Of a stretch of DNA of 64,000 nucleotides, positions 44,068 to 64,000 are shown piece after piece. The translations under genes and the position numbers were made by a program. Source of the stretch: Parcubacteria bacterium C7867-004 (GTDB lineage Bacteria > Patescibacteriota > Minisyncoccia > Phycocordibacterales > Phycocordibacteraceae); NCBI GenBank assembly GCA_001189075.1, contig LFCN01000006.1:524866-588865 (forward strand). The letters run 5' to 3'. Each line of letters starts with the position of its first letter. Within the stretch, counting starts at the first letter, position 1. The notes below the pieces were generated by a model. The model saw only the letters and a program-made list of their open reading frames with translations. It did no database searches and was not told the DNA's origin.

Positions 44068-44174
44068 GTGTCGCCGTATCATACCGCGTGCGGTCCCTTG
44101 CGTGCAAAACACGCTTCCTAAGGGGCGCTATGCACGGTATCCATAGAAGGTACGGGGGTATAGAATACCCACAC

Positions 44175-45485: not shown

Positions 45486-45553
45486 AAGGTACGCGTTTGA
45501 GGCGGATTCCTTTCCGCCCCGCTCACCAAAGCTTTCTTTGCTACTATTAGCGT

Positions 45554-45844: not shown

Positions 45845-45884
45845 GTCATTGACGATTATGCGTAATGCGACTATACAGATACCT

Positions 45885-46464: not shown

Positions 46465-46477
46465 CTATAGTTCTTGC

Positions 46478-48220: not shown

Positions 48221-48231
48221 AGACTTGTAGA

Positions 48232-48498
48232 TTACTCTTTCGGGCCAAATTTCTGATGAAGGTACTCGACTATTGCGTCGGACTCGTACATCTCGACACC
48301 TGCGTCGACGTCGACGAGGTACGGCATCTGACGTTTGCCACCCCGAGCGATAAGCTCTTCCGCTACCGCCGGGTTAGCAACGGTCTTCAGATCGAAGACC
48401 AGACCCAGTTCCTGACCCGCCTGAAGGACTTTGGCGCAGTACCCGCAGCCGACTTTTATGTAAAGGATGAGGGGTCCGTGGTGTATGGGTTCGTTCAT
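48232..48498 (-). CDS. glutaredoxin-like protein (CxxC thioredoxin fold)
   Basis: ILYIKVGCGYCAKV active-site motif in an 88-aa protein. Confidence 0.75.
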   Translation of the reverse strand: MNEPIHHGPLILYIKVGCGYCAKVLQAGQELGLVFDLKTVANPAVAEELIARGGKRQMPYLVDVDAGVEMYESDAIVEYLHQKFGPKE

Positions 48499-48583: not shown

Positions 48584-48658
48584 TCACATTCCGCGGTAGC
48601 TCAGTGGTAGAGCGGTCGACTGTTAATCGATTGGTCGCAGGTTCGAATCCTGCCCGCG
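48584..48658 (+). tRNA. tRNA-Asn (anticodon GUU), CCA encoded
   Basis: TCCGCGG/CCGCGGA acceptor, GCTCAGTGGTAGAGC D-arm, anticodon loop CTGTTAA, GGTTCGAATCC T-arm, GCCA 3' end; terminator hairpin GCTAG..CTAGC+TTTTTT follows at about 48690-48715. Confidence 0.85.
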
Positions 48659-50151
48659 GAGCCAGAAGAGACATCAGCAAAATCAAGGACCAAATTAAAC
48701 GGAGAAGCTAGTGTAAAATCTAGCTTTTTTCCGTTTACAGTCGGGTTCTGAAGTATGGAACTCAAAAAGGCTCTTTGGTTAGCCGGTTCAGAACTATTCT
48801 CAAAAATAGACTTTGCCCTGCGAGCTACAGATATGACCGTAGCAACAGTAGTTTGGTAGTCGTAATCTGCCTTGCGGTATTCGGACATTTCAATTTCCAG
48901 GGTTTGTATCTGGTCCTGATACTCTTGGTGCTTTTTGTCATAGATGTCCTTAGTAATACTCTGGTCCAGGTAGGCTTCAAGCAATCGGTCATCCTTTGCT
49001 TTAAGTGCGTCATAGTCGTTCCGCATCCGGTTTATCTGAGCCTTATGAAATGCGACTTCGGCTTCAGTGTTCTTCCGAAGCTCATCGACAAGCTGATTCT
49101 GAGTATTCTCAGTAATCGTTGCAAAGTGCTCTAGAACCTCGTATACGGGCTTGAGAAGGTCCTTTTCAGGTACATACACCCTTTTGCATACTCCCTTAGC
49201 ATTCGTGCAAGAATAGTAGATAAAGCGACCCTTCTTGATTTCAGCACTCATTGAACAGCCGCAGTTTTGGCACTTGAGCAAACCCTTGAATATGAAGTCC
49301 CGGGATAGTGCCTTGAAAGGGGTTTTCCTGCGTTTGAGGCGTACATCTTCACACTTATCAAAGAGCTCCCTATCAATCAGGCGCGGATACTTGTGCGCAT
49401 ACGGACCATACTTCTTTGAGACAGCAGTACCGCAGTAAAAACTATCCTTGAGCATATTTTCAATGCAACTCTTGGAGAGCTTGAAACCCTTGAGGCTTCG
49501 TAAGCCAAGTTCCGAAATCTTTACCCTGATAGTCTCTAGGGAGTAGTTTCCTGTAGCATAAAGCTCAAATACTTTCTGAACCAAGTGCGCACGTTCTGGG
49601 TCTATGATTATGTCTTTACGTAAGCGCTTTTCTTGGTCCAAGTGAATATTCAGGTAGCCTAAACGGACTGCTCCTGTCCACTCGCCGTTCCTGCGCTTTT
49701 GCTCAAAGGCACGTCTAACATTGTCGCCGATAGCGTCTGAGTAGTACTTAGCCAGTCCAAGACTCATACCAAACTGAAACTTCTCAACAGCAGACATCTG
49801 GCTATTAATAATCTGACCGTCCGAAATGAAATGAAGTTCAATCCTATCTGCTACAGCAAGCTCATAGAGCCTGGCCACTCTTTTATCAAAGACGCTTCTT
49901 GAGAGCCGGTCTACCTTGTCAAAGCAGACTGCAATCTTTTCCTTCTTAATCGTTGTCTCAACAAACTCTAACAACTTATCAAACTCATCCCGCTTATCCT
50001 TATATGCGCTTTCATCAAAGCTAAATGATTTGATGACGATGAAATCTCTCTTTTTGCAGTAGCTGTCTACACGCTCAATCTGAGCAGGCAGAGAATTTCC
50101 TGCCTCCTTTTGTTCCTCTGTTGATACTCGTGAGACATTTACCGCTTTCAT
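48601..50151 (-). CDS. large serine recombinase (integrase), resolvase-type catalytic domain + recombinase domain + zinc ribbon + coiled coil
   Basis: N-terminal VSRVSTEEQ (catalytic Ser), DRLSRS, zinc ribbon CQNCGCSM...YYSCTNAKGVC, C-terminal coiled coil; the last roughly 19 codons read antisense through tRNA-Asn. Confidence 0.85.
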   Translation of the reverse strand: MKAVNVSRVSTEEQKEAGNSLPAQIERVDSYCKKRDFIVIKSFSFDESAYKDKRDEFDKLLEFVETTIKKEKIAVCFDKVDRLSRSVFDKRVARLYELAVADRIELHFISDGQIINSQMSAVEKFQFGMSLGLAKYYSDAIGDNVRRAFEQKRRNGEWTGAVRLGYLNIHLDQEKRLRKDIIIDPERAHLVQKVFELYATGNYSLETIRVKISELGLRSLKGFKLSKSCIENMLKDSFYCGTAVSKKYGPYAHKYPRLIDRELFDKCEDVRLKRRKTPFKALSRDFIFKGLLKCQNCGCSMSAEIKKGRFIYYSCTNAKGVCKRVYVPEKDLLKPVYEVLEHFATITENTQNQLVDELRKNTEAEVAFHKAQINRMRNDYDALKAKDDRLLEAYLDQSITKDIYDKKHQEYQDQIQTLEIEMSEYRKADYDYQTTVATVISVARRAKSIFENSSEPANQRAFLSSILQNPTVNGKKLDFTLASPFNLVLDFADVSSGSAGRIRTCDQSINSRPLYH

Positions 50152-50154
50152 GGG

Positions 50155-52815
50155 CTATAGAATATTTTCCTTAAGAGCCCCATCAAAAGCTGTTTCTTCG
50201 CTATTGTTGTAGAACGGAAGACCCCACACAACATATTTCCTATCTTCCCAGAGTTGTTCAACTTTGTGCTCTTCGTTAAGGGATACTAGGAAATTCTGCT
50301 TCCAAGCATCTGTTTCTTTGAGATGACTGCCCTTAGGCTCAATGAATACTTGGTAGTGGATACTCTTTGGCTTTGCTTTTTGGTAAAGGAAAAGTACGAA
50401 GTCTGGTTCGAGTGCCCTTCCATCGTCAAAATTGTAAAGCTTAAAAAAGCGCTCATTCCTTACTAGGTATACCTCGTCATACTTCTCACGGAGTTGCGTG
50501 TAAATCTTATCGACATATTTAACAAGGTACTTCTCTTCAGAAGTTCCGAAACAATCATTAAACACGTACCAAGACTTGTTACTGAGGTCTAGATAGATAC
50601 TAGTCTCTTGAGCATTGTTGATTGACTTCCCAAACTCCTTATCTTCGCTCTCATTCTCTGCGAAAGTAAGGACCTTTTCAGAGATTTTATCCTTGACCAA
50701 ATAGGGTTTAAATTCCTTACTCCCCTTGTATTCAAGTTTATCGCCAGATACACCCCTTGAGATAAGCTCTAGGACCTGCAAAACCGTGTCTAAGACATCG
50801 TCAGGACTTAAATTGTCTAGCTGGCTAGGTAGCCCAGAAACAGTCATTTTCACGCTTCCTAGGTAGTTCTTATTAGTAATAAAGTCATCGAGACTTTCAA
50901 GATTTGGGAAGTAAGTCTTGAGGTTAGAGAAAGAGTAAAATTCCAGCTTATAAATTGCCTTCTTTATAACGGTGGCACTGAGGTCCTTGATAGCAAAATC
51001 CCTTTCCTTCTTCTCTACACCTTTTTTGCTTTGTTCATCAAAAATACCGCTCGAAAGGTTAAAGCCGGTCCGTAGAGAAACTTTATAGAGAGTATCTCGC
51101 ACTGAGGATGGCAACCCAAAAACATCCTCTCGCGTGTACTTTTCTTGCTCATTGAGGAAAAGAAAGCCTGATTTGTAGAACTTACTTTCTTTGAAGTCAT
51201 CTTTAATGGTGAGACTGCGCTTTACTGTTTTATCGGCAATGATTCCGCTCGTTACGAGCGCGGAAGTAAGCTCCTGAATATACTTTGGGTTGTAGGTGCT
51301 GTGATAGTAAAGCTCTTCACAAATTCTCATCTCATTCTCAACGTCATCATCAAATTTCCTCTTCGATGCGTCATCGGTTTCGCTTAGCTTGAACGGACAG
51401 TATCGTGCACCACGACCAATGAGCTGGGCCTCTCGGATTGTTGTTTCACCAGGTCTGTTATTTGCAGAATCACGCGTATCGTACAGACGAACAATATCAA
51501 AAAGGTTCAGAACGTCCCATCCCTCATTTAGCTTATCTACAGCAAAAACTGCTCGATACTCATTGTCAGGAGCTTCTAGAGTATTGATGGCTACCTGTTT
51601 TTCCTCGCTCTCTTCCTTGCTGTTAACTGAGATTGTTTTATCGGCAGAGAAATCTTCCTTAAGCTCAGATACTAGGTTTTCAAGCGTAATCTTGTTCGAG
51701 TCGAAATACTCAAACATTCTTACGAGAACCTCGTCCTTTGCGTTTGCCTTTATTTCTGCAAGCTTCTTTGTAGTAAGTCCTTGCACGCTCTTGATAAACT
51801 CCTCCTGAAAAGCTTTGCTATCTGCAATGGTTTTAGACTTGAAAAGAAGCACCGGTTTAATAACCTGCTTGTTCTTCTCAAAGAGTTTTCTACGGTACTG
51901 GCTAAGTAAAATGGCCTGTAGACCACGGTCAAGTAAATTCGCATCCGCTTGAAGTACCTTCACATCCTTTGAATAGCCGTCCATTCGGAATTGCTTGAGT
52001 GGGTAGTCAAAAACAAGCCTGTCAGCATACTTTCTTGCTATATGCGGGTTACTGAAATCTACCGTTGCTGTGAACTCTAAAAGAATATTCTCAGCACTTG
52101 CGTTAACAATTCTATTGACCGTGCTCTCCCAAGAGATAATCTCTTCGGCTTCTTCTCTAGAAACCGAACCGTTTATGGTGACCTCACCGAGCACTCCGGT
52201 TCTGAGACCTGCTCTTGTCTCAACGTTAATATGGTGTGCCTCATCAGATATGAGCACAATTTTCTTATCCTGAAAGTCGTCAAAGGTAAGAGAGTTCTCT
52301 TGAGGATTGTTCAGTCTAGTATGAAGGCCTTGGATAGTTGAGAACGAGATATTAATACAGTCATCATTTCCAGCCTGAAAGTTATTTACTTCCTTAAGGG
52401 AAACTTTCTTTCCCCTAAAGGCGACGCTGCTGTTGAATAAGTACTTTATTGATGCGTCATTAAAGAAGTTATCTCGTGTCTTATCAATGATGTTTGTGCT
52501 GTTCACAAAAAAAAGAAAGTTTCTATACCCTTTCTCGTAGAGATAGAGAATCAGTCCGGCCATAATGAGCGTCTTACCACTACCAGTAGCCATACGGAAA
52601 AGAAGCTGATGCTTCTCAGGCTTGCCATCAAAGTTCTCGTTTAAGTAGTTTAGAAAGTACTGGAAAGCTCTTTCTTGGTAAGGTCTTATAGCAAACTTCT
52701 GATTGAGGTTTGCCGTTATGAGGTCAGGCACTTGAGTGGCTTCTATGCCACGCTTGCCAAACTCTGATTCAAGTATTCTGTTGAGTGTTTTAATTTCGTC
52801 CATAGAACTTAGCAT
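50155..52815 (-). CDS. res: Type III restriction enzyme, Res subunit (SF2 helicase-like ATPase + nuclease)
   Basis: Helicase motif I MATGSGKTLIM, motif II LISDEAHHI (DEAH), 886 aa, directly downstream of the mod gene. Confidence 0.8.
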   Translation of the reverse strand: MLSSMDEIKTLNRILESEFGKRGIEATQVPDLITANLNQKFAIRPYQERAFQYFLNYLNENFDGKPEKHQLLFRMATGSGKTLIMAGLILYLYEKGYRNFLFFVNSTNIIDKTRDNFFNDASIKYLFNSSVAFRGKKVSLKEVNNFQAGNDDCINISFSTIQGLHTRLNNPQENSLTFDDFQDKKIVLISDEAHHINVETRAGLRTGVLGEVTINGSVSREEAEEIISWESTVNRIVNASAENILLEFTATVDFSNPHIARKYADRLVFDYPLKQFRMDGYSKDVKVLQADANLLDRGLQAILLSQYRRKLFEKNKQVIKPVLLFKSKTIADSKAFQEEFIKSVQGLTTKKLAEIKANAKDEVLVRMFEYFDSNKITLENLVSELKEDFSADKTISVNSKEESEEKQVAINTLEAPDNEYRAVFAVDKLNEGWDVLNLFDIVRLYDTRDSANNRPGETTIREAQLIGRGARYCPFKLSETDDASKRKFDDDVENEMRICEELYYHSTYNPKYIQELTSALVTSGIIADKTVKRSLTIKDDFKESKFYKSGFLFLNEQEKYTREDVFGLPSSVRDTLYKVSLRTGFNLSSGIFDEQSKKGVEKKERDFAIKDLSATVIKKAIYKLEFYSFSNLKTYFPNLESLDDFITNKNYLGSVKMTVSGLPSQLDNLSPDDVLDTVLQVLELISRGVSGDKLEYKGSKEFKPYLVKDKISEKVLTFAENESEDKEFGKSINNAQETSIYLDLSNKSWYVFNDCFGTSEEKYLVKYVDKIYTQLREKYDEVYLVRNERFFKLYNFDDGRALEPDFVLFLYQKAKPKSIHYQVFIEPKGSHLKETDAWKQNFLVSLNEEHKVEQLWEDRKYVVWGLPFYNNSEETAFDGALKENIL

Positions 52816-54661
52816 TCAAAGCAACGTCTTCTTTAGATATTGCATATGTTTTGTCTTCGATTTCTGAGTACGGCACATACAGCAGATTCTTATCCAAAAT
52901 GGAAATTAAGAATCTTTGCTGGTCCTCAAAAGAAAGGCTCTCGAAATCTTTCTTCGTAGCGTCAACATCCTGAGGTTTTACTTTGTAGCTCAGGAAGGCT
53001 GTCTTCTTCATTTCCTCCCAAATAGTCATGAGGCTTTTTTTGTTCTTTACATCCTGTATTTTGTCCACAAAAAGCTGATTCGCCTGGGCGAGCTCGGCAT
53101 ATATAAATGAACCGCCCCCTTTCCAGTTCACAGATTCTGATATTCCTCCCTGCTCACCGTCAACTGCTTTTTTAAGTCTCTCAACTAGAACACTATCAAC
53201 ATAATCCATTTGTTCTACAGTGATAAACTGTCGTCCCATCTTCAAAGCAGTAGAAGCAGTAGTGCCGGAGCCACCGAAGAAATCCAGCACTAGGTCATCC
53301 TTCTTCGTGGAAAGTTCAATGATTCTTTGAATGAATCCTTCTGGTTTAGGGCCATCAAAGACTTTTTCTTTAAATAATTCTTTCAAGTGGCGAGTAGCAT
53401 TTGTTGTTGTAGGCAAGTCAGACCATAAAGTCGTAGTAACCTCTCCTCGCTCCTGTGCTTCAGACCAAAATCTTTTCCTTTGAGGACCGGCTTCACCGGT
53501 AGTGCCAAAGACAATCCTTTTATCTTTTAGTAAATCTTCGAATACGCTTTTTTCATTCTTCCAACTGTTGCCTGGTAACGGAGTATAAACTTCTCCAGTT
53601 TTGGGATTCTTAATTGGATATAACTGATTGGGGCGGATACCCCCAACCTGAAATGGGTCAGCAACCCACTTACCTCTAGGGTCGTTATCTGGGTTATTAA
53701 ACTTATCTTCATTAGCTGGAATTCTAAAGGTCTCTCGGTTCTTCTTGAGCCATTCTTTGTTTGTTGAGTACACCAAAGTGTGTGTATGTGCGTCAGAAAT
53801 AAGTGCGGTATTAGTAACTGATTTTGTAGAATTCCAAATAACATCGGCTACAAAGTTTTTCCTGCCGAACACTTCATCACACAGCACTTTTAAATAATGA
53901 CCCTCATCATCACTAATGCTCATCCAAATTAATCCGGAGTCATTCTTAAGAAGTTGTTTTGCAACCTCCAATCTATTCCTCATAAACGTGAGCCAAGTAG
54001 AGTGGTTGAAATTGTCGTTGTAGAGAAAGTCATTGCTTTCATTATCTCTGTTATAAGGCGGGTCGATATAAATTAACTGGACAGACTCCTTGTATTTAGC
54101 AAGAAGAGTCTGTAAAGCTAATAAATTATTACCCTTGAGAATAAGGTTGTCCTTAAGTCCCACTTCCTTAGCAATAATTTCTTTCCCTTTTTCATATCTC
54201 TTAAACTTTGTGAGTGCTTTTGGTTTTAGAAGTTTATCAATTTCATCAGAAGCCAAGGTCTCATTCCAAAACACTTCACTCCTCTTCGCATCATCCTTAC
54301 TTTGACCACCTTCAAGTACACAATCCTTATAGGGGAAGGCGAGGACCACCTCCTCACTATCGGTTAGGTAGTGCTTGTCAGAAATTAGACCAATCTTATT
54401 CTTGTACTCTGTAAAACTGTCAGGAAGAAACTGTTTGTTGGAAACGTAGCTTTGGAATTTAACCTTGTCGAAAACAAGGAAATCATCAACCTGCTGAAAA
54501 AAGGTTTCTGAGAGATCTTTTGAAGAGCGAAGTAGCTTTAATAAGCCAGCATCTAACTGAAGTGCGAGCTCAATAATCTTATTCTTAGCAAGCTTTCCTT
54601 CTACAACGAGCCGGTCATCTTTTGAGAGTGCTTCCGTTAGCTTTTGATGGATGTTTTTCAT
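52790..54661 (-). CDS. mod: Type III restriction-modification system Mod subunit (N6-adenine DNA methyltransferase)
   Basis: IYIDPPYN (DPPY catalytic motif IV), FFGGSGTTASTA SAM-binding motif I in the beta-class order; 26-nt overlap with res. Confidence 0.85.
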   Translation of the reverse strand: MKNIHQKLTEALSKDDRLVVEGKLAKNKIIELALQLDAGLLKLLRSSKDLSETFFQQVDDFLVFDKVKFQSYVSNKQFLPDSFTEYKNKIGLISDKHYLTDSEEVVLAFPYKDCVLEGGQSKDDAKRSEVFWNETLASDEIDKLLKPKALTKFKRYEKGKEIIAKEVGLKDNLILKGNNLLALQTLLAKYKESVQLIYIDPPYNRDNESNDFLYNDNFNHSTWLTFMRNRLEVAKQLLKNDSGLIWMSISDDEGHYLKVLCDEVFGRKNFVADVIWNSTKSVTNTALISDAHTHTLVYSTNKEWLKKNRETFRIPANEDKFNNPDNDPRGKWVADPFQVGGIRPNQLYPIKNPKTGEVYTPLPGNSWKNEKSVFEDLLKDKRIVFGTTGEAGPQRKRFWSEAQERGEVTTTLWSDLPTTTNATRHLKELFKEKVFDGPKPEGFIQRIIELSTKKDDLVLDFFGGSGTTASTALKMGRQFITVEQMDYVDSVLVERLKKAVDGEQGGISESVNWKGGGSFIYAELAQANQLFVDKIQDVKNKKSLMTIWEEMKKTAFLSYKVKPQDVDATKKDFESLSFEDQQRFLISILDKNLLYVPYSEIEDKTYAISKEDVALNAKFYGRN

Positions 54662-54664
54662 AAA

Positions 54665-54862
54665 TTATTTCGTACTCGCCTTTTTAAGAAAATCATCAAA
54701 CTCATCCTTATCAATTCTGTACTCTCGGCCAATCTTATAAGCACTCAAACGACCAGCTTTTATATAGCGGTAAATGGTCATGATATTCACATCCAACAGA
54801 CTTGCGAGGTCTTCCGCCTTGTAAAACTGCTTTTCTTTAGCCATACCCACTAATTTACTCAA
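54665..54862 (-). CDS. excisionase/AlpA/MerR-like helix-turn-helix DNA-binding protein (65 aa)
   Basis: YKAEDLASLLDVNIMTIYRYIKAGRLSAYKIGREYRI is the Xis-family HTH pattern; immediately upstream of mod. Confidence 0.6.
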   Translation of the reverse strand: MSKLVGMAKEKQFYKAEDLASLLDVNIMTIYRYIKAGRLSAYKIGREYRIDKDEFDDFLKKASTK

Positions 54863-54896
54863 TAATTATACTTGACACTACTTTACACATCAATTC

Positions 54897-55811
54897 CTAC
54901 CCAGTGGACAAGCTTTTCTTGTACGGCTCGTACTCCTCTAGGCTCTTATCTATCTGGTTGACCCAGTCTCTGAGCTTGTTCTTGGTTATCAGAGTGCTTG
55001 CTTGTTGCATATCCTTAGCTATGCGATACCAGGTCCTATCATTCGACCTTTTCGAAAGAATGGTTCGCAACTGCCTCATCCCATTCTCGTCTCTAGCAAG
55101 CATGAACAAACCTAGTAGATATATGGCTTGCTTTGGTTTCAGATTTTTATCTGCTAAAAACAAGGTTCTCAACACATCCTTAATGCTTACAGATATTGAG
55201 AATAAGCCCAGATTCCTCTCTTTTATCAGCCTCTTCCAGTAATCGCTTACAACCCTCTTGCTCATCTCGGTACTGAAAATCTGTGTGAATGTAGGGTTCT
55301 TGTCATATCCCAAGTCTTCGAGCACTTTGTTCATCTTCTGCTTGTGGTTCAATCTGATTTCAAATCGTATGACTTCTTTTAGGTCCTTGCCTTTGGTCAG
55401 TTCCGTAAATAGGGTCCTGTGGTAGCACGTTTGGTCCTTATCAATCGCACGCTTCTTATCCTTACTCAAGTCAGCAATCTTGTCATAGATAACAAGTTGG
55501 TGTGAAGTGGTATGAGCATAAAGGCTCTGACCGTCATTCATAAATCTCGTCTTTGAAAAATCAAAGCTCTTTCTCAGGTTGACCTTGTTCATTTCTGAAA
55601 TCAAGTGGTTTGCTGTGTAGCCATCTTCCAGCCGGATGTTCTTAGAGAAGTGGACTGAACTTACTGATGCTTTCTCTAGTACTGGCTTTGAGACTATTAC
55701 ACCCATAGTCCTGAGTCTTTCTTGTAGAGTCGCAATTACCCTTGGAAAGTCCTTTTCCTCAAGCTCTTCAAGATTATTCAGGTATATCAGCTTGGGTGCA
55801 GAAAACTCCAA
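54897..55811 (-). CDS. hypothetical protein (304 aa), island cargo
   Basis: ORF track, AT-rich, Lys-rich; no family recognised from sequence. Confidence 0.5.
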   Translation of the reverse strand: MEFSAPKLIYLNNLEELEEKDFPRVIATLQERLRTMGVIVSKPVLEKASVSSVHFSKNIRLEDGYTANHLISEMNKVNLRKSFDFSKTRFMNDGQSLYAHTTSHQLVIYDKIADLSKDKKRAIDKDQTCYHRTLFTELTKGKDLKEVIRFEIRLNHKQKMNKVLEDLGYDKNPTFTQIFSTEMSKRVVSDYWKRLIKERNLGLFSISVSIKDVLRTLFLADKNLKPKQAIYLLGLFMLARDENGMRQLRTILSKRSNDRTWYRIAKDMQQASTLITKNKLRDWVNQIDKSLEEYEPYKKSLSTG

Positions 55812-56167
55812 ACGAACATTGGCTTCTTGTGAGTAATGGCGCTGATAACCAGTTAATCTAGGAAAGTAGTTTCCAGTCTCCTTCTCTGCCTTACTCGGAT
55901 TCCGGACATACTTTTCATACTGGTCTGTCTTTGAATACAGTTACCAGTTTGATACTCCTGAGAGGTAGGTCATTCTATCCTTTGGTATCAAGAGGCATAC
56001 AGTATCAATCATTTTTCGCTTTCTTTATCTGGTAAAGTTCAGGATTTTGCTTCTTGTCCTCTTGGATAAGCCAAACAAAAGCACTAACAAGCTTCCCTCT
56101 GTCTTCCAGAGTTAGGTTATTTACTTGAAAGCTCTGTTCAGGCCTCAATTTGGTTGCAATTACCTGC

Positions 56168-56212
56168 ATAAAAAAACCCGTAGGTTGTACCTACAGGCTA
56201 TCTTTTTCGGCT
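56168..56212. terminator. hairpin (CCGTAGGT..ACCTACAGG) flanked by an A-run and a T-run; probable bidirectional terminator inside the island
   Basis: AAAAAAACCCGTAGGTTGTACCTACAGGCTATCTTTTTC read directly. Confidence 0.45.
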
Positions 56213-56254
56213 AAGCCGGTATAAGAACTTTGTGAACTACGGAAAGTATCTGTA

Positions 56255-56998
56255 CTACAGTTCTTTTCGCTTTTTCTCCATCAGCGAGATTATTTTTCCG
56301 ATATGACCGTAATCGAGATGTTCTCCAAACTTATCGCTCACAAGTCCCATAATTTCTCGTCTTGGCAGGTCTTTGTTGTAGTAGATAAACTCGTTTCTTT
56401 CTTTGATTTTCGGCTTCTTTCTTTTCACAGAGCCTATCTTCAGTTCCTGTCTCTTATACTTCTCTTGAAGAGGTTTGATTACTTCAGTATATGTATGTTT
56501 TATGTGGTCAATGATGTCTCTCTCGCTAGCAAATGGACTTATCCCTAGGACCACAGGGTAAATATCCTTGTCATTAATTCTTGTTGAAAATATTTCTTCA
56601 TTCCTTAGTACAAATTTCTTATAGTCCCACACATTACAGAGAGCCACGTAGGGTTCAGCACTGAATTCGTCCGCAACGATATACTCAGTAAGCTCTGTAC
56701 TCCACATCAACGGGTCAAGGCCATATTCAAGCAGGAGTGTATACAGGTCTTCTTGAAAAAGCTTATTGCGTTCAAGTTCGTCCGTAAGCTTAGGAAACAA
56801 GTCCATAAAGTCGTCAGAACCCCTTATTCCCTGCTCCGAAAGTCCATACTTCTTTCGCAGAGAAATTATAGACGTCGAAAACTTCTCTGTGTTTAATACT
56901 TCTTCGAAATAGTTGAATAACTTCTTATAGCCACTTGTTTTTGACAAGGAATTTTGAATATCATCGGGGTCAGAGAGGCTATTGAAGTCCAGCTTCAT
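56255..56998 (-). CDS. hypothetical protein (247 aa), island cargo
   Basis: ORF track; no family recognised. Confidence 0.5.
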   Translation of the reverse strand: MKLDFNSLSDPDDIQNSLSKTSGYKKLFNYFEEVLNTEKFSTSIISLRKKYGLSEQGIRGSDDFMDLFPKLTDELERNKLFQEDLYTLLLEYGLDPLMWSTELTEYIVADEFSAEPYVALCNVWDYKKFVLRNEEIFSTRINDKDIYPVVLGISPFASERDIIDHIKHTYTEVIKPLQEKYKRQELKIGSVKRKKPKIKERNEFIYYNKDLPRREIMGLVSDKFGEHLDYGHIGKIISLMEKKRKEL

Positions 56999-57156
56999 TC
57001 CTTTACTCTAGCTGACAGTGGACTACAGTTCAATCAATGAGTAGAGCAGTTCGCTTTTATCAGCAAAGTTGCACTAGTAGGACAGGATTGGTCAGTTTGC
57101 GTAGGTAGATAGTCTGAAAGGACGGCCGGAAACCCTCTCTACAAGCGGCACCTGCC

Positions 57157-57492
57157 CTATTTACTGCGCCAATAGCCTTTTACATACGTCCCATTTGCTC
57201 GATAGTATCCATTCACCCAAACAGTCTTTGAGACGGCGGGCGTGACCTTAGGCCAGGTCTCCTTCGCTGCCGCGGGTGCTACAACTCTTTTGATCGTAAC
57301 TGGTGTCGCTTTAGGAGCAACCTTCACTGGACAGCCAGAGGTATATCCTAAATCTCCGCAGGTATAACTACCTGTATCTGACGGGCAAGAGTGCCAACGG
57401 TGACAGCCTGACTGGTGGGCAGATACCGATGAAGGCACGAGAGTGAAGGCCAGTGCTGCTAGCAATAGGAGTCCAGGAAGAAGGTTTTTCAT
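57157..57492 (-). CDS. small secreted protein with signal peptide, Cys-rich N-terminal segment and conserved-looking YxxNGTYVKGYWR tail
   Basis: MKNLLPGLLLLAALAFTLVPSSVSA signal peptide; CHRWHSCPSDTGSYTCGDLGYTSGC; C-terminal VNGYYRANGTYVKGYWRSK. Confidence 0.5.
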   Translation of the reverse strand: MKNLLPGLLLLAALAFTLVPSSVSAHQSGCHRWHSCPSDTGSYTCGDLGYTSGCPVKVAPKATPVTIKRVVAPAAAKETWPKVTPAVSKTVWVNGYYRANGTYVKGYWRSK

Positions 57493-57500
57493 AATGACCC

Positions 57501-58058
57501 TTAGAACTTCTCACCTTTCTCCTTGAGAATTTTTTCTACACTTGAGACGGTGTTCTTCGAAGCATCGTTTAACTCCAACTTACCATTTAGAAAACTCTCA
57601 TATTCTGCATCTAACACAATAGAAGGTTTTATTTGTTTAATGCGATTTAAGAAAGATTTAATTTTCTCGTCTGAGTAACTACCCTCTCTTATCGAGTTGT
57701 GGTAAAGCGTACCATCAGATCTTAAGATATATAGATTCATTCTAGATCCAAACCAAGGCAATACGTATTGAGAAAAACGATAGATATATTTTATGCTTAA
57801 TACATCTATTTTATCCTTACCGAAAGTTTTATAACCTGAATTTATCAGTGTACGCGCGTCTTGAATCTCAAGGTATGTGCTAAAGAACGTCCTTATATTT
57901 ACTAATAGGATCATTAGTAGCAGCAACAGGAAAAATATAGTCTGTCGATTTAGTTCATGGAAAAAGTCTTTGCTATATCCTTCAATAAGGAATACACCGA
58001 CTAGCAAAGCTGAAGTATATATTGGAACTAAATTCGATCTAAACAGCTCTTTCTTCAT
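57501..58058 (-). CDS. polytopic membrane protein, candidate immunity protein for the upstream Rhs C-terminal toxin
   Basis: AT-rich; two to three TM helices; start 5 nt after the Rhs stop codon. Its position directly downstream of the Rhs toxin-carrying C-terminus suggests an immunity role. Confidence 0.45.
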   Translation of the reverse strand: MKKELFRSNLVPIYTSALLVGVFLIEGYSKDFFHELNRQTIFFLLLLLMILLVNIRTFFSTYLEIQDARTLINSGYKTFGKDKIDVLSIKYIYRFSQYVLPWFGSRMNLYILRSDGTLYHNSIREGSYSDEKIKSFLNRIKQIKPSIVLDAEYESFLNGKLELNDASKNTVSSVEKILKEKGEKF

Positions 58059-58062
58059 AATT

Positions 58063-61000
58063 TTACCTAGCAAAGATTCTCAACCCAGTTGACACTGAAT
58101 AATTTATAAGATTCTCAGCAAATGCTGGCATGAATGAAGCCGATGATCTTCCCAATGAAGATTCAACACTTTGTCCTGCCATTTTTGCTCCTGCTGCACC
58201 AATTGCTGAAATGCCTGCCTGACCCGCACCAACGTTACCTGAATCTAACATGTTTTGGGCTGCTGCTGATGCGCCCGCATTAAATACTATTCTTCCTATA
58301 GTTGCGTTAACTGAAGCGGCTCCTGCTATCGCGTCTGCTGCGGCTGAAGTTCCATACTGACCAGCAGTACTCTTTGTGCCATTATAGGCATCCCCGGTTG
58401 CTCTCGATGCAGCTCCCACTGCTGCAGAAGCATAGGCCCCAGCCACTACAGCTTCCTGTGCGGTAGCAACAGCAGCTCCCACCAAGCCTGCAACTTGCAT
58501 AGTAGCTACAGGCAAACCAAAGCCAACTTTAAGACCTTGCGTCATCACATTTTGTTTATAGTTATTTGCCGAAACCGGAATATTTGGGTTACGAGGACCA
58601 CCAAGCGCATGAGACATTATTGAGGTGTTCCCCGTAGGGTCTTTTTTAGTAATAGGATTGTTCTCCGCATAGCTATAGCTATTTAAGCTCTGCGGACTCA
58701 TAAGTAACTGATTGTGATCGAGACTGGTAAGAGCCTGAACCTTATTCGGATCACCAAGTGCCAGGAAGCTAGGGTCTTGGGAAAGGAAACCACCGCGCCC
58801 CCCATCGTAGTATCTTGCATTTAGGTACGAGAGGTCGGACTCGTCATCATGCAGCTCCCCGATGTAGCCTCGCTTCTCCTCGAATGAGCCGGACTGGGCC
58901 CGCTCCCCTCCGTAAGGATAGTAGTCAGTTACTTCAGATGCGGCACCCGCATTATTTGATGCAACATTTGTGCTGCCCAAATGATCGGGGTGGATATACT
59001 GGATCGTACTGGTAGCTCCAGCTGTCTCTACGGTCGCAATAAGCTCTCCGCCTGCGTATATACGCTTTGATGTAGTCGTGCCGGTGGTGTCGTAGAGACG
59101 ATTCACATAGCGGGTTGTAGTGCCTGCTGCGACCTTCAGGACACGCTGATTCGTGTGGTCATACGCGTAGGTGGTAGTTGCTCCCCCGCTCTGGGATGCG
59201 GTCATTCGATTCCGGTAGTCCCAGGCGTAGTTCTTTGCCCCGTATGCGGTGAGATTGCCGTTCGTGTCGTAGGCGAGGCTTGTAGAGGCAATGGACGTAG
59301 CTGCGTGCGGATTGGTGTATCCCGTCTCGCCGTACGTATAGCTTCCCTGATCTGACTTGCTCGTTATGTTCCCGATAGGGCTATAGGCATACGTCTGCAA
59401 GTATGGGGTCGAGGACGCAGCGGTCGTCGATGCGGACGTAAGGCGGTTCAGGCCGTCATAGACGTAAGTAACCTGTCTCGCTGCCTGAGTGCCTGAGTAA
59501 TCCTTTATGGCAGTTATGTTACCTACATTGTCGTAGAAGTAGTACGTGTCTTGAACAATATCTGACGTGCTGAGCGCACCTGTGGAGAATGTAGCCGTTT
59601 CAACGCTCCATTCCCCCGCGAAGGTGTGAGTGTCCCAATACTTTATCCTCCAGTAATAGGTTGTTCCGGGAACGAGTGCCGGCCCCACATATGGCAGGAC
59701 CTCGGTCCTCATATTGTTCGGTGTAGAGCTCGCAAGAGGGGTCTTTCCACTATCCCAGTACGGGCTTGTGAAGCTCGAAGAAGTTGCTACTTGGATCTGG
59801 TAGTACAGAGCCAGGTCACCACTATCAATATCGTGATGTATTGCCGAGAATTCGGGAGTATTGTCGGTCAAGTTTGTCGGGTTCGTCTGAGCATTCGTCT
59901 CGAGCGATGTCGGAGGGCCCGGCGGTGCGTACTGCGAAATAGTGAAGGTAGCGTTGGAACTCCATGAGCCCGCAGAGTCAGCAGTATCCCAGAACTTTAC
60001 CCGCCAATAGTACGGCGTTGAGGAAGCGAGAGTAGAGCCCGAATAGGATATATCTGGCGTACGACTACCGACCGGGGTCGAGCTTGAGAGCGCTGTCTTT
60101 CCACTATCCCAGTACGGGCTTGTGAAGCTCGTCGAGGTGCTGACCTGTATCAGGTAGTTGAGCGCGACGTCGCCAGCGTCCGAGTCCCCATAAATTGCTG
60201 AGAACTCAGGGGTAGGGTCAGTGACATCGTTCGGATTGGTACGGCTTTCCGTCTGAAGCGAAGTCGGCTCGGTCGGTGCGAGGTTGTATATCACCACGAG
60301 GTTCGGATCCTGGCTGGTTCCCGTGGTTTCCGCAGATGCGAATACCACAGTGAGCTCAATGGCATCAGTCGTCCAGTTGTTATTGAAGTCGTTATAGGAA
60401 CGGAAGCCGAGTTTTGATACGCCTGTTGGTGTTATAGCAGCAAGTCCGGTGCTATTGAGCGACAGAGATTCATAGGTGTTGAGTGTATAGGTCCCATCGG
60501 TAGTACCGAATGACGTGCTTCCAACCTGGTCATAATCGCCGAGTACGAGGGCAGTATTCGAAGCCGGAGTGGCAGCAACTGCGTATATGCGCTTCTCAGA
60601 ACTTCCAGCAAGAACGTTCGTGATGTACATGTTAACCGTTGCCGCAGTCACGATCGCAGCGTCTGGTAACACTGACGTATCGAATAGAAGGAAGGCACGT
60701 GCGAGACCAACCTTACCATTTGATTTTTCCTCATCACGAGCGTAGAGGTGAGCGCTCAAATCGTCTCCGGCGTTAGAGGCACTCGCGTTTCGGGTCGTAG
60801 TCCAGTTGCTGCTGTCGTTCTTCTCCATCGAACCGTCGACCGAGGTGACTTCTGTATTCGGATCAGGATAGAAGGTAACGGAAGCAGCGAGCGCGTGCTT
60901 CGGCAGGAAGAAGCTCAGTATCATTTCGATGATGGTCGGCTTCTCTTCCTTGGCGGTTACCTCCTTCTGATACTCGTAGGAGGCCTTGGTAGTGATGCCG

Positions 61001-64000
61001 TAGTCGGCAATCCACCACTCGCCTTTTTCGTCCTCATAGTACTGCGGATCGCCTGAGATTATCTCCGCGATAAAGGCGCCTGGCTCGTTTGTTGCGAAAG
61101 TTCGTGAGTGACTAGTTCTCTTGTCAGAAACCTCGCCCGTGATTGTCAGGCCTGCTTCCTGTGCCTTACGGTTGGTGTCTACGCCCACTGGAAGCGAGTC
61201 CACCCTCTGGTCACTCTTGTATGCGTACTTAATTATTCCTTCCTTGATCTCTTTAGAACCGAGATGCCGATCGAGCGGTGCCTTGAATTTTAGCTCTTCT
61301 GCATCAACCGGCAGTGATTTGAGATATTCAGCACGATCCTGGACCGGCGACATCTCATCTGTTGTCGTGGAGGTCTTCTCTTCAGCTGGTACAGTCTCCG
61401 GCGCTGCTGGTTCAACAACGGGAACTACTGGCTCGTCTACCACAGGAGGAGTTACCTCGGGAATTTCTATTGGAGGCTCTTCTGGTACCGGCTTTTCTTC
61501 TACTGGAGGAATTGGTTCATTGTTAGTCTCTGTTGGAACTTCTGGCTGGACTGGTTCTACAGATTCTTCAATTATTTCCTGCTGTGATGGAAGTACCGGT
61601 TCCGCCTGAACTATATTCAGGAGAGAAAGAAGATATGGGTCATTTGAGGCCAGCGCAAGATGACCGCCTTTAAGAATCGACAGTTCCTCGAAGTCCTCGA
61701 ATTGCCCTTCATCCTCCTCTCCTCCGCCACCTCCCATCATCATCTGCATACCGACTTGTCCCGTTAGAGAAGTCCGGATATTCGTCAGCCGATAGAGTTT
61801 TCCTGCCGAGTACGAGTACGTACTGACTGCGCCATTTCCAAACTCCTTATACTTCACCTTTCCAGTTGGCGCGTAGTCGAAATCAGCTATGACATTAGAG
61901 AATGATCCTCCTGATTCCTTTTGCGCAACCGACTCGAGCATGCCCGCGCTGTTATATAGGTAACGTACCTGCGAGGAGTCTGGGTAGGTGGTGTAAACGG
62001 GATTCCCGGCACGATCGTATTCGTAGAGTGTCGTAGCGGTAGTGCTGCTGATGGAACGTGCTTCCGTTGCGACGCGACCGAGTGGATCATAAAGGAAGGT
62101 AGCGACTGCTGAAGTAGAGGTTGCCGAGCAGAGCTGTCCTTTTCCGTCCGTGCACGCGTCGTATGCATAGGAAACCTCAGTGCCTCCCGTGCCTGCGTAG
62201 TCCTCAGTAAGGACACGATTGAGGTCGTCATAGGTGTAGCTTACAACCTGACTCTTCGGGTCGGTTGTCGAAGCGAGGTTGCTTGATGCGTCATACGCGT
62301 AGGACCAGGTGCCATAGGTGCCATCAGCTCCATCATGTATATCTTGCGCGGTAATCCGGCGACCCAAGCTGTCATAGGTGAAGTTACGGACATTGGCGTC
62401 CGCATCGGTTATCTTGGTCAGCTTCTTGTTCCCGTTGTATTCATAGGCACTCGTATACGCACTTACGCCGTTATGTTCAACAACAATAATAAGGTTGTCA
62501 TACGCGTCCTTTGTGAGATCAAGCTGCGTACCTCCCGCATCTGTAACAGTTGTCACCCAGTCATCGAATGCATAAGTCGTATTCCCTACAGAGTTTGATG
62601 CGATAGTCTTCCGCTGAAGCGGATCGTACGTATAACTCTGAAGAAGATAAAGTGCTGGTGCTGAACTTGTACCGGTATATGAGCTCGTATATACGAAATA
62701 CGGGAGCGATTCGCTCTCGAGCAGTCCCCGTGTGTCATAGACATACGTTTTTGCAGCATAGGTATTTGAGCCCTCAGCTTCCGAAAGCTCCTGCACCTTT
62801 CTTCCAAGGCCGTCGGAATACGTAAACGATTCAGCTGTGGTAGTTGCGTCCAGGTATTTGGTGCTTGCCACACGGCGCGGCATGCTGGTATCCGTGTAGG
62901 TGTAGGTGGCCTTTGTTACTAAGGTTGACGGAGTAACACTATCGGGCTGCTTTTCTTCTTTGACACGATCGAACGGATCATACGCAGTCTCAAACGCCCT
63001 TCCATTTGCATTAACCGTACGGAGCGGCTTCCCAGACGAGTAGTCAAATGTAGAAGAGACAGTTTGGCTGAGAGGGTTGGTCGTAGTTGCACGATAGAGA
63101 TTATAGGAATCGTAGGTGTAGGTCGTCTGCTTATCGCGTGGGTCTTTCTCGGTCAGGACCAAACCTCGTGAATCATAGGTCTTCTCGACATCGATCGTAC
63201 TTGATCCAGTCACCCAGGATTCCTGCTTCGTGAGATTACCCTTGTTTATCGAACCGAAGGAGAGAGTGTCGTAATAGTTCTTAGTCTCTCGAATAGTTGT
63301 GTTCGACTGGTTTAAGACTGTCTCTTGAGACTGGAGCGCAAATGGAACCGTCGAGCTCGCGGCATACGATAGGTTGGTTGTGAACTTGTCTGAACCAGTA
63401 TCACTGAAGGATCCGTCGGAGCTTCCCGTCACCTTGCCCCATTCGACCTTCTGGGTCAGATTCCCGGTCGAGTCATCATAGGTATAGGTTTCGGCCTTAT
63501 CGGCATGATCCGAATCCCCGTCATAAGAAAGCTTGGTAGATTGCGTCTTCTTAACAAAATTGGCTTTCCCCACCCGGTTATAGGTCTGCCAGGTATTTAC
63601 GCCGAGCGCGTACAAATGTCCGGAATTGTCATATGCCTCGCTGCGGAACATCTTTCCGATCTTCGACTGGTCGTCTGCGTATTCGCCTGAGGAAGTAGCC
63701 GTGGTATTGCCCTGGTGGAAATAGGACGTGATTACGTTTCCTCCGCTATCGGTTTGTGTCGTCGTACCGAAACCTGCGAGTCGGTGATCGAAAGGGTTGG
63801 CGTAGTAGTTGCTACCGTTCGAATAGGTATAGGTATTCGTCGTGGTCGCGGCTATGCCGTCAAATTTACTCACCGTATTGACGGTCATCAGATTGGCCGG
63901 GAATGTCGGATTAAGCATGGCATTGCTCGAGTCTCGGTAGAACGCGGACGCCTTGTAGGTCGGCACTACGGTAGCTCCTCCCTGTTCGCGCACTAAGGTG
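58063..64000 (-). CDS. Rhs/YD-repeat polymorphic toxin (over 1976 aa; N-terminus beyond window end) with C-terminal Gly/Ala-rich putative membrane-active toxin domain
   Basis: Dozens of YD repeats (YxYDxxGRL-like: TYTYDSYNLYRAT, YEYNGNKKLTKITD...). RHS core end ARYYDGGRGGFLSQDP...NSYSYAENNPITKKDPTGN (DPxGx autoproteolysis motif). A roughly 215-aa glycine-zipper-like C-terminal domain follows. Also an internal Pro/Glu-rich linker and two tandem FN3-like modules. Confidence 0.85.
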   Translation of the reverse strand, partial: TLVREQGGATVVPTYKASAFYRDSSNAMLNPTFPANLMTVNTVSKFDGIAATTTNTYTYSNGSNYYANPFDHRLAGFGTTTQTDSGGNVITSYFHQGNTTATSSGEYADDQSKIGKMFRSEAYDNSGHLYALGVNTWQTYNRVGKANFVKKTQSTKLSYDGDSDHADKAETYTYDDSTGNLTQKVEWGKVTGSSDGSFSDTGSDKFTTNLSYAASSTVPFALQSQETVLNQSNTTIRETKNYYDTLSFGSINKGNLTKQESWVTGSSTIDVEKTYDSRGLVLTEKDPRDKQTTYTYDSYNLYRATTTNPLSQTVSSTFDYSSGKPLRTVNANGRAFETAYDPFDRVKEEKQPDSVTPSTLVTKATYTYTDTSMPRRVASTKYLDATTTAESFTYSDGLGRKVQELSEAEGSNTYAAKTYVYDTRGLLESESLPYFVYTSSYTGTSSAPALYLLQSYTYDPLQRKTIASNSVGNTTYAFDDWVTTVTDAGGTQLDLTKDAYDNLIIVVEHNGVSAYTSAYEYNGNKKLTKITDADANVRNFTYDSLGRRITAQDIHDGADGTYGTWSYAYDASSNLASTTDPKSQVVSYTYDDLNRVLTEDYAGTGGTEVSYAYDACTDGKGQLCSATSTSAVATFLYDPLGRVATEARSISSTTATTLYEYDRAGNPVYTTYPDSSQVRYLYNSAGMLESVAQKESGGSFSNVIADFDYAPTGKVKYKEFGNGAVSTYSYSAGKLYRLTNIRTSLTGQVGMQMMMGGGGGEEDEGQFEDFEELSILKGGHLALASNDPYLLSLLNIVQAEPVLPSQQEIIEESVEPVQPEVPTETNNEPIPPVEEKPVPEEPPIEIPEVTPPVVDEPVVPVVEPAAPETVPAEEKTSTTTDEMSPVQDRAEYLKSLPVDAEELKFKAPLDRHLGSKEIKEGIIKYAYKSDQRVDSLPVGVDTNRKAQEAGLTITGEVSDKRTSHSRTFATNEPGAFIAEIISGDPQYYEDEKGEWWIADYGITTKASYEYQKEVTAKEEKPTIIEMILSFFLPKHALAASVTFYPDPNTEVTSVDGSMEKNDSSNWTTTRNASASNAGDDLSAHLYARDEEKSNGKVGLARAFLLFDTSVLPDAAIVTAATVNMYITNVLAGSSEKRIYAVAATPASNTALVLGDYDQVGSTSFGTTDGTYTLNTYESLSLNSTGLAAITPTGVSKLGFRSYNDFNNNWTTDAIELTVVFASAETTGTSQDPNLVVIYNLAPTEPTSLQTESRTNPNDVTDPTPEFSAIYGDSDAGDVALNYLIQVSTSTSFTSPYWDSGKTALSSSTPVGSRTPDISYSGSTLASSTPYYWRVKFWDTADSAGSWSSNATFTISQYAPPGPPTSLETNAQTNPTNLTDNTPEFSAIHHDIDSGDLALYYQIQVATSSSFTSPYWDSGKTPLASSTPNNMRTEVLPYVGPALVPGTTYYWRIKYWDTHTFAGEWSVETATFSTGALSTSDIVQDTYYFYDNVGNITAIKDYSGTQAARQVTYVYDGLNRLTSASTTAASSTPYLQTYAYSPIGNITSKSDQGSYTYGETGYTNPHAATSIASTSLAYDTNGNLTAYGAKNYAWDYRNRMTASQSGGATTTYAYDHTNQRVLKVAAGTTTRYVNRLYDTTGTTTSKRIYAGGELIATVETAGATSTIQYIHPDHLGSTNVASNNAGAASEVTDYYPYGGERAQSGSFEEKRGYIGELHDDESDLSYLNARYYDGGRGGFLSQDPSFLALGDPNKVQALTSLDHNQLLMSPQSLNSYSYAENNPITKKDPTGNTSIMSHALGGPRNPNIPVSANNYKQNVMTQGLKVGFGLPVATMQVAGLVGAAVATAQEAVVAGAYASAAVGAASRATGDAYNGTKSTAGQYGTSAAADAIAGAASVNATIGRIVFNAGASAAAQNMLDSGNVGAGQAGISAIGAAGAKMAGQSVESSLGRSSASFMPAFAENLINYSVSTGLRIFAR
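59560..60300 (-). repeat. intragenic tandem duplication (2 x about 360 bp) encoding FN3-like modules within the Rhs gene
   Basis: gtctttccactatcccagtacgggcttgtgaagctcg occurs at about 59743 and about 60103. Encoded copies ...FTSPYWDSGKTALSSSTP...YYWRVKFWDT... and ...FTSPYWDSGKTPLASSTP...YYWRIKYWDT.... Confidence 0.7.

Follow-up and report, generated by a model that had tools for sequence, protein, structure and literature searches.

A probable plasmid-like integrative element with a split serine integrase gene at a tRNA-Asn gene of Parcubacteria bacterium C7867-004

We analysed a stretch of 64,000 nucleotides (the window) from Parcubacteria bacterium C7867-004 (assembly GCA_001189075.1, contig LFCN01000006.1, positions 524,866 to 588,865), in which a tRNA-Asn gene adjoins a low-GC string of genes for a large serine recombinase (LSR; gene int), a Type III restriction-modification (R-M) system, a small helix-turn-helix (HTH) protein and a Rep-like protein, followed by an Rhs toxin gene. 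Very probably, a small integrative element of the plasmid-like kind found in Patescibacteria has inserted here, forming an island of about 18 kb with a split int gene. Alignments with related loci establish the architecture of the element family, the splitting of int, the core of the attachment (att) sites, the circular form and a defect in the rep gene of the window copy.

The int gene is split between the two ends of the island

The tRNA-Asn(GTT) gene, the target of integration, occupies positions 48,590–48,664 of the plus strand (ARAGORN; Rfam tRNA 75.7 bits). The int gene lies on the minus strand at 48,601–50,151 in its integrated, split form of 516 amino acids, and its open reading frame (ORF) overlaps the oppositely oriented tRNA gene by 64 nt. 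The protein is native up to about residue 495, and its last ∼21 codons are the antisense strand of the tRNA gene. It contains the resolvase catalytic, recombinase and zinc ribbon domains of the LSR class (Pfam Resolvase, PF00239, 1e-19; Recombinase, PF07508, 6e-13; Zn_ribbon_recom, PF13408, 2e-9; all above gathering scores) and matches a PHROG integrase (2e-74); the catalytic serine can be read from the sequence in the motif RVS(10)T. Among NCBIfam families, XisF (96 bits) and CcrB (83 bits) score highest, yet far short of their cut-offs, and Int therefore belongs to none of the named LSR subfamilies.

At the opposite end of related elements, an nhmmer search found a conserved segment of ∼120 nt in about 45 loci, always in the orientation of int and upstream of rep, at a distance to Rep of 0.7–4 kb (typically ∼2.5 kb). 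The segment always begins with GCTCC, right after a host hairpin and T-run of the type found after unoccupied tRNA-Asn genes. Read in the int frame, all 28 of 28 copies contain an ORF of 28–37 codons with a conserved stop, encoding the peptide (W)LPxVDKFRTxNWxxIKSELQFSGILxLFPxLxLQN. The codon-position entropy of this tail is 0.73, 0.57 and 1.12 for the first, second and third position, respectively, so that third positions are about twice as variable as second ones; over the first eight codons, where the coding sequence is at the same time the P arm of attP, constraint extends to every codon position. In the genome of the window organism, the segment is found at 1349–1514 of locus L091, upstream of the Rhs gene and equivalent to window positions ∼66,560–66,710, about 2.7 kb past the window end. 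No copy was found by nhmmer inside the window.

When the chromosomal int gene and the far segment of the same locus are joined at the core, the window gene becomes an uninterrupted ORF of 542 codons with the conserved tail, and the genes of eight other loci (L005, L007, L009, L014, L024, L025, L033 and L040) reach 528–547 codons. Rejoining preserves the reading frame in every one of the 11 loci whose int gene is otherwise undamaged, namely these nine, L034 and L095, even where the frame at the junction differs. In the window and L095, the junction spacer is 1 nt shorter and the far segment carries a 22-nt duplication, whereas L034 has a different junction offset and a 23-nt insertion in the far segment. 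These 22–23-nt duplications repeat the DKFRT-coding motif and leave the rest of the tail back in frame. The covariation in frame shows that selection acts on the joined gene, and that the window int gene has its cognate partner in the segment on the far side of Rhs. The far end of the element is the 3′ end of its int gene, some 35 codons long. L059 is the only locus where the join gave no full-length gene, and its int gene has an internal stop.

In that locus (L059 10001–11303, from Kaiserbacteria RIFCSPHIGHO2_01_FULL_46_22), the joined ORF ends at codon 315. The far segment and the att core have survived in good condition, and we count the locus as a further copy in decay.

Unsplit int genes with the tail are present in at least five of the 120 best Int clusters (P0046, P0057, P0066, P0068 and P0106), whereas about 90 of the 120 end in ...PNWLRG or similar, the read-through into the tRNA antisense strand. 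P0106 is encoded on two contigs of 9,436 nt from two samples, each with a 30-nt terminal overlap. Once trimmed, the contigs are exact circular permutations of one circle of 9,406 bp (L093/L094), assembled independently from SRR31843394 and SRR31843399. The circle carries genes for Rep, the HTH protein, a Type IIG R-M system, a full-length Int and three cargo genes, and no tRNA; it is a good candidate for experimental work on the family. Its Type IIG R-M system is MmeI/Eco57I-like, and the cargo includes DUF2779 and OGFr_N-domain genes.

The window attL site (48,640–48,705), delimited by an alignment of int-proximal junctions, consists of a B arm (T-stem and 3′ strand of the acceptor of the tRNA), the core and a P′ arm within int, and reads tRNA...CCGCGGAGCCA | GAAGAGAC... 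around the junction. The attR site, located in L091, reads ...GTCCACGAGGGGAGC | AAATGAAAAC in the tRNA sense, followed by the host hairpin. Common to both sites is GGAGC (48,658–48,662 in attL), and the core shared across the family, GGAGC(C/A)A, covers the 3′ tip of the tRNA from acceptor position 72 through the discriminator to CCA. Comparison of attL and attR with attP of the L093 circle, TGGCTACCC, narrows the obligatory identity to GCT/AGC. For the window element, the predicted attP junction is GCTGATGTCTCTTCTGGCTCCCCCTCGTGGACAAGTTCAGAAC and the predicted empty attB is GAATCCTGCCCGCGGAGCAAATGAAAACGGCGCC. The crossover dinucleotide is probably AG (48,660–48,661, tRNA positions 72–73) rather than GC, since GC is palindromic. 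The motifs CTGGAC and GTTC.AGAAC / AATTTG recur on the P and P′ arms as inverted copies, so that the sites have, on sequence alone, the tiny core and imperfect dyad symmetry of serine-integrase att sites. The body of the tRNA is thus host DNA, with the discriminator, CCA and trailer supplied by the element, which explains how elements are found at tRNAs whose acceptor stems differ between hosts.

With attP situated within int and the core located at the very tip of the tRNA, integration cuts the gene in two; this is the topology known from SSV-type integrases, with attP within the int ORF. The initial annotation of this DNA had placed the far boundary of the island beyond the window, and this proved right. 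It had expected a direct repeat of the tRNA 3′ segment there, in place of which we find a core of 5–7 bp and the final ∼35 codons of int, displaced from the rest of the gene. Neither the downstream part of the window nor the 2 kb beyond the Rhs gene contains a copy of 12 nt or longer of the tRNA 3′ segment, and a tRNA 3′-end direct repeat was rejected as attR, as nothing above chance was found in the same two regions. To treat a missing att repeat as grounds for dismissing the island, as had been suggested, would be to reject it wrongly, since serine integrases need almost no repeat. The att-bounded island extends from 48,66x to ∼66,710 (window-equivalent), or about 18 kb.

Two further candidates concerning the att sites were discarded. 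A crossover in the T-loop was considered for loci with tRNA 3′ repeats of 17–20 nt; these repeats lie 135–230 nt outside the true junction, past the host terminator, and at the true junction only GCTCC is common. Decay of the window P′ arm was also considered. The same variant occurs in P0005, P0025 and P0102, matched by a variant far segment, and the arm therefore represents a subtype and not decay.

The outer repeats are an observation in their own right. A direct copy of 17–20 nt of the tRNA-Asn 3′ end lies outside attR, beyond the host terminator, in seven loci from different hosts (L005 1805–2035; L009 4494–4612; L014 3783–3990; L033 3248–3440; L040 2414–2600; L059 2840–2985; L062 2536–2650). 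An inverted copy resembling the T-arm and acceptor lies 100–200 nt inward of the outer repeat, and the pair can form a long hairpin. The outer repeats have no Rfam or ARAGORN match and do not occur in the genome of the window organism; they may represent scars left by earlier elements or inversions, or alternatively a structured RNA.

We propose the following cycle. In its free state, the element would be a circle of ∼7–10 kb carrying cargo, in some cases the accessory gene hyp247, then Rep, the HTH protein, R-M cargo and int. The LSR would recombine attP, contained in the last part of its own gene, with an attB right at the 3′ terminus of tRNA-Asn. On integration, the host would keep the body of the tRNA, and the element would bring the discriminator, CCA and terminator. 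The int gene would be cut, with ∼495 codons staying by the tRNA and reading into its antisense strand, and the last ∼35 codons being carried to the opposite end of the element as part of attR; excision would restore the full gene. Once excised, the circle is presumably replicated by the Rep-like protein, perhaps by a rolling-circle mechanism, and the R-M system may defend the host and also stabilise the element.

A family of elements across Patescibacteria

We compared about 90 related loci; a scan of one genome per species returned 80 loci, almost all from Patescibacteria (Saccharibacteria, Nomurabacteria, Kaiserbacteria, Wolfebacteria, Magasanikbacteria, Gracilibacteria, Moranbacteria, Uhrbacteria and Paceibacteria). 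Int relatives form more than 120 database clusters at 70–92% identity. In most loci that extend beyond the gene, a convergent tRNA abuts or overlaps the 3′ end of int. It is tRNA-Asn in close relatives and tRNA-Gln, -His, -Asp or -Arg at an Int identity of 60% or less, so target switching within the family stays at tRNA 3′ ends. Relatives with 45–60% identity beside other tRNAs are found in L018, L026, L050, L056, L057, L061, L063, L067, L072 and L079.

With the window proteins as tblastn queries, Rep was found in 62 loci (40–83% identity), the HTH protein in 64 and hyp247 in 20, and the gene order is invariably hyp247, Rep, HTH, ..., Int. The family layout is the far-end segment, variable cargo, hyp247 where present, Rep, HTH, variable R-M cargo, Int and the convergent tRNA-Asn. 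Slot 1, between the HTH gene and int, holds R-M genes in nearly all cases: N6_N4 methylases (16), C5 methylases (13), ResIII (10), D12 methylases (7) and further types including HaeII, HpaII, ThaI and EcoO109I; it is empty in four loci. Slot 2, between the far end and Rep, is filled mainly by genes resembling toxin-antitoxin and abortive-infection systems (SocA/Panacea, DUF3800, AbiEii, AbiTii). We are highly confident of the family picture that emerges from these comparisons of many independent sequences, in which a serine integrase with attP inside its gene would target the 3′ tip of a tRNA and R-M cargo would be carried on an element with a circular form.

An integrative element with a serine integrase, an Xis-type HTH protein and a Type III R-M system had been proposed for the window from the start, and the same core at tRNA-Asn in dozens of divergent Patescibacteria bears this out. 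The cargo, which differs from locus to locus, and the free circular and unsplit forms in family members also support it. In loci with shared host synteny, Fmt and Def are 33–50% identical to those of the window, whereas Int and Rep are 70–84% identical, and the identity ranking of Int and Rep is discordant with host relatedness. Such a pattern, with Int and Rep more alike than the flanking genes, is what horizontal spread predicts.

The alternative is an immobile, vertically inherited, AT-rich defence locus whose recombinase would be a resolvase or invertase, for example for R-M switching. It could appeal to the same synteny (S30AE, fmt, def, EPSPS, MreB, tRNA-Asn) recurring across Patescibacteria, and to the JGI metagenome contigs, in which no empty site was found for the window organism. 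Apart from the identity values just given, however, the variable cargo, the existence of unoccupied tRNA-Asn genes and of circular and unsplit forms, and the full domain set of a large serine integrase, unlike that of a small resolvase, all contradict it. This explanation is largely refuted and retains next to no probability. As to the sites without the insertion for which the initial annotation had suggested a comparison, unoccupied tRNA-Asn genes occur elsewhere, but none was found for the window element in the JGI metagenome contigs. Both attL and attR were identified for the window copy, and circular and unsplit forms in family members only.

The order MreB, EPSP synthase, def, fmt, S30AE/HPF, (glutaredoxin-like), tRNA-Asn (window 43,057–48,498) is kept across very divergent Patescibacteria, the loci being L009, L011, L015, L020, L033, L035, L042, L045, L078, L088 and L095. 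L005 has the S30AE side at the other end of the element, suggesting that the DNA around the site may have been inverted.

Remnants of int are also found. Nine genomes (L080, L082–L088 and L090) have kept only the last ∼95–120 int codons (77–84% identical), and the breakpoints cluster at residues 391–399. In L084 (10001–10330), the int remnant precedes a partial tRNA 3′ end that lies ∼800 nt away from the tRNA-Asn gene now in place. The remnants look like relics displaced by later integrations. L095 (3219–4974) holds tandem elements, in which a second LSR gene (552 amino acids) runs directly into the int tail of the downstream element. This junction is the hybrid P′1-core-P2 expected when a new element enters a resident attL, the inner integrase regaining a tail.

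Gene content and state of the window copy

GC content is 57.6% in the upstream host DNA (1–48,589) and 41.1% over 48,665–57,050; gene by gene, it is 43.9% in int, 41.1% in res, 39.6% in mod, 37.9% in the HTH gene, 42.0% in rep and 39.2% in hyp247. The low-GC core ends near 57,050, and a second dip at 57,500–58,100 (33%) corresponds to the tip of the Rhs gene and the presumed immunity gene. The initial annotation had described a drop from the tRNA 3′ end, which is there, to 38–40% straight away, which does not fit int at 44%; nor does the low-GC stretch continue to 58,100, as the core stops near 57,050 and the Rhs body has 52% GC.

The genes of the core all lie on the minus strand. Type III Res (50,155–52,815; Pfam ResIII; PADLOC REase_III 3e-128) and the Mod methyltransferase (52,790–54,661; Pfam TypeIII_RM_meth and N6_N4_Mtase; PADLOC MTase_III 6e-165) form the slot 1 cargo; mod and res are adjacent in one operon, as is usual for Type III R-M, with an ORF overlap of 26 nt, and an 87% identical copy of Res occupies the same slot in L005. 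The next gene (54,665–54,862) encodes the small HTH_17 protein of 59/65 amino acids, a family core gene (HTH_17 1e-13; PHROG excisionase families). A score of 49.4 bits against TIGR01764 'excise' (cutoff 28.8) places it in the excisionase family, and it is a candidate regulator or recombination directionality factor. The Rep-like gene, also a family core gene, was delimited at 54,897–56,012 by alignment with homologues. The operon that had been predicted (hyp304, HTH, mod, res, LSR) stands, with gaps and overlaps of only 3–35 nt, which fit a single operon from rep to int.

Upstream of rep follow a terminator-like hairpin of the intrinsic type (56,175–56,199, minus strand; terminator scan, 11-bp stem, then a T run) and the accessory gene hyp247 (56,255–56,998, minus strand), whose homologues (23–45% identical) occupy the same position in 16 other loci, always just upstream of rep. 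Hyp247 has no match in Pfam, NCBIfam or PHROG, and its AlphaFold2 (AF2) model (pLDDT 75) has no PDB fold match. A promoter-like motif (TTGAAC, 17 nt, TAGAGT; 57,005–57,033, minus strand), seen in an alignment upstream of hyp247 homologues, is kept across the family as TTGAA..N17..TAAAGT. Rfam matched nothing but the tRNA when the window region and the odd far-end modules were scanned.

Beyond the core, the 247-aa protein is followed by a small secreted protein and by a membrane protein beside the Rhs gene, all as initially listed. The secreted protein (57,157–57,492, minus strand; 111 amino acids, 51% GC) lies inside the att-bounded region and is not a family gene. The membrane protein (57,501–58,073, minus strand; 185/190 amino acids, 33% GC) overlaps the Rhs stop codon and is presumed, from the usual order of Rhs toxin and immunity genes, to be the Rhs immunity protein. 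The Rhs/YD-repeat toxin gene (gene calls; 2,683 amino acids, ∼8 kb) has its 3′ three-quarters in the window, from 58,063 to 64,000 on the minus strand, and runs past the window end. It matches Pfam SpvB, FG-GAP and, weakly, RHS_repeat; it has the YD/RHS repeats, low-GC tip and overlapping 185-aa membrane ORF of an Rhs cassette. A sharp GC dip (33–46%) is restricted to the C-terminal tip of Rhs and the overlapping membrane ORF (window 57,500–58,400; L091 9751–10750); exchangeable toxin/immunity tips typically show such a dip, which is unrelated to the low GC of the element itself. The secreted protein has a Cys/His-rich motif (HQSGCHRWHSCPSDTGSYTCGDLGYTSGCP), a Lys/Tyr-rich C-terminus and host-like GC; it has no family match and sits between the Rhs immunity gene and the core of the element. 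The secreted and membrane proteins have tblastn matches in the genome of the window organism only.

Several observations weigh against reading this region as a single integrated plasmid-like element, beginning with the Rhs block, which has 52% GC compared with 41% in the core and no counterpart in the ∼45 other elements; the "one 18-kb element" could be a core element with later insertions. On account of its host-like GC and its absence from other members, we regard the block as a secondary acquisition and not as family cargo, apparently inserted at a later stage in the far cargo slot of the window element. Since the int tail and attR lie upstream of the Rhs gene, this gene, its neighbours and the secreted protein gene are inside the att-bounded region. 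An island of integrase, R-M system and polymorphic toxin, as first described, is therefore correct as to its bounds but not as to the Rhs gene being family cargo.

If the element were instead just the 8.4-kb low-GC core (48,665 to ∼57,100), its own far end would have been lost, the tail beyond Rhs would be a relic of an older, deleted tandem element, and the Rhs, secreted and immunity genes would belong to the host. The GC break near 57,050 and the host-like GC of the secreted protein and Rhs genes would agree with this, as would the absence of the Rhs, immunity and secreted genes from all other family loci and the existence of tandem arrays and int remnants in the family (L084, L095, L080–L090). 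However, the rarer junction frame of the window int gene (TCT GGC TCC) is exactly offset by the 22-nt duplication beyond Rhs, whereas an unrelated relic would be in frame only by chance, and here an intact ORF of 542 amino acids results. Nor does the window hold another copy of the far end, or an int remnant or tRNA fragment between hyp247 and Rhs. We consider this explanation improbable, and think it likely that the entire 18 kb is one excisable unit. A far boundary at ∼57,100, suggested by the secreted and immunity genes being absent elsewhere, was dropped once the int tail was found beyond Rhs.

The Rep-like protein contributes further points on the same side. Its match to Pfam Rep_trans (PF02486; 24.8 bits, 2e-5) is under the gathering score of 29.6, and it has no sequence or fold match in the PDB. 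The AF2 model (pLDDT 73), for which a shallower alignment was used, resembles the Inoviridae replication protein G2P in BFVD (E 6.5e-6, probability 1.0), with TM-scores of only ∼0.4 for the BFVD matches. The motifs YDK and RFE.RL are invariant, and resemble those of pT181-type Rep proteins. The resemblance to G2P, together with the serine integrase, the excisionase-type HTH protein and the small size, would also suit a defective filamentous (inovirus-like) prophage or a phage satellite. We regard such an origin as very improbable: no coat, Zot-like ATPase or virion gene is present in the window, the 9.4-kb circle or the Pfam summaries of the cargo, no family member (including Int relatives) is found in IMG/VR, and Rep and hyp247 have no PHROG match.

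Also to be set against the proposed reading are the following. The empty attB and the attP junction of the window element are absent from the JGI metagenome contigs, so that mobility of this copy is unproven. No transfer machinery is encoded that would account for movement from cell to cell. Most family sequences are metagenome-assembled genomes (MAGs) and metagenome contigs. The rep gene of the window copy carries a nonsense codon, which speaks against autonomy.

The family Rep proteins have 359–380 amino acids and begin with MIDTVCLL.... The start is intact in the window (56,012), but codon 24 is TAA (55,941–55,943), where the relatives P0121, P0123 and P0144 have Glu. The ORF called hyp304 in the initial annotation (54,897–55,811) is what remains after the TAA codon of a Rep-like gene with a full length of ∼372 amino acids. 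Owing to this codon, the copy is probably not autonomous, while int, the HTH gene, mod and res are intact. The window copy is probably a resident, non-autonomous, decaying island with both att sites preserved, and we doubt that it is still active. The same gene arrangement is present in DGYM01000008.1 (MAG GCA_002398375.1) and in two further assemblies.

Relation to known systems

SSV-type ("suicidal") tyrosine integrases are known from archaeal viruses and plasmids such as SSV1, pTN3 and pT26-2 (PMC8371274, PMC7253208). They share with the present element attP in int, a tRNA target, int pieces at opposite ends of the element and a compact int/att module (PMC8371274, PMC7253208). The difference is that here a serine recombinase without the tyrosine fold acts in Bacteria and not in an archaeal host, and that the gene is cut just ∼35 codons from its 3′ end. 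The cut leaves the catalytic, recombinase, zinc-ribbon and coiled-coil parts undivided, so that the integrated int gene may still be active.

LSRs of phages and other elements (phiC31, Bxb1, A118, TP901-1, CcrAB, TndX/TnpX and XisF) have the same domain architecture with an N-terminal catalytic serine, and the same short att sites with a tiny core and imperfect dyad symmetry. Unlike the present family, their known members target protein-coding genes or intergenic sites. In well-studied LSRs, attP lies beside int and not within it.

Integrative mobilizable elements (IMEs) with a serine integrase and a Rep_trans/MobT relaxase are likewise small, combine an integrase with a single Rep- or relaxase-like protein and cargo, and have no transfer apparatus of their own (PMC5704250). 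Here, in contrast, Rep_trans is matched only below threshold, and Patescibacteria have no known oriT or helper conjugative system. They are naturally competent (PMC10187176), and we speculate that transfer may take this route. By analogy with these systems, the element may be described as SSV-like in gene topology, phage-serine-integrase-like in chemistry and small-IME- or plasmid-like in gene content, and it is a member only of the serine-integrase superfamily.

According to the Islander paper, only tyrosine-family integrases are known to target tRNA genes (PMC4383910), and self-cutting integrases have been regarded as an archaeal peculiarity (PMC8371274). In the open-access papers and preprints that we searched, the family, tRNA-targeting serine integrases, a split serine integrase and self-splitting integrases in Bacteria are not described, and an earlier account may exist elsewhere. 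The choice of target is of interest, as the serine integrases of this family use the terminal nucleotides of tRNA-Asn or, in more distant relatives, of tRNA-Gln, -His, -Asp and -Arg. The self-splitting topology, having arisen independently in another recombinase superfamily and in Bacteria, allows its purpose to be asked. Bacteria of the Candidate Phyla Radiation (CPR) are largely without CRISPR. They lean on R-M systems, and this family gives R-M genes a tangible vehicle for passing between even very distant CPR lineages. With a short attB in every genome, the 3′ end of tRNA-Asn, and a single protein, it could also be made into an integration tool for Patescibacteria.

A bolder proposal is that this is the first bacterial and the first serine-recombinase self-splitting integrase, that the tail swap is a switch of directionality or copy number, and that the family is the main R-M shuttle among CPR bacteria and a ready-made integration tool. 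Full-length Int, made from the circle only, would then integrate, and the tail-less chromosomal Int would either stay silent or need the HTH protein to excise. We put this forward tentatively, as a possibility against which the odds are somewhat higher than for it.

The tRNA islands found by Islander/TIGER, which have tyrosine integrases, resemble the present island in lying on the 3′ side of a tRNA with a restored tip, in the compositional jump and in the defence cargo. They differ in the displaced tRNA fragment of 15–60 nt at their far end, where here only the 5–7 bp core is found. Island finders based on repeats would miss a boundary marked by this core only, and the displaced int tail is a better boundary marker than displaced tRNA fragments.

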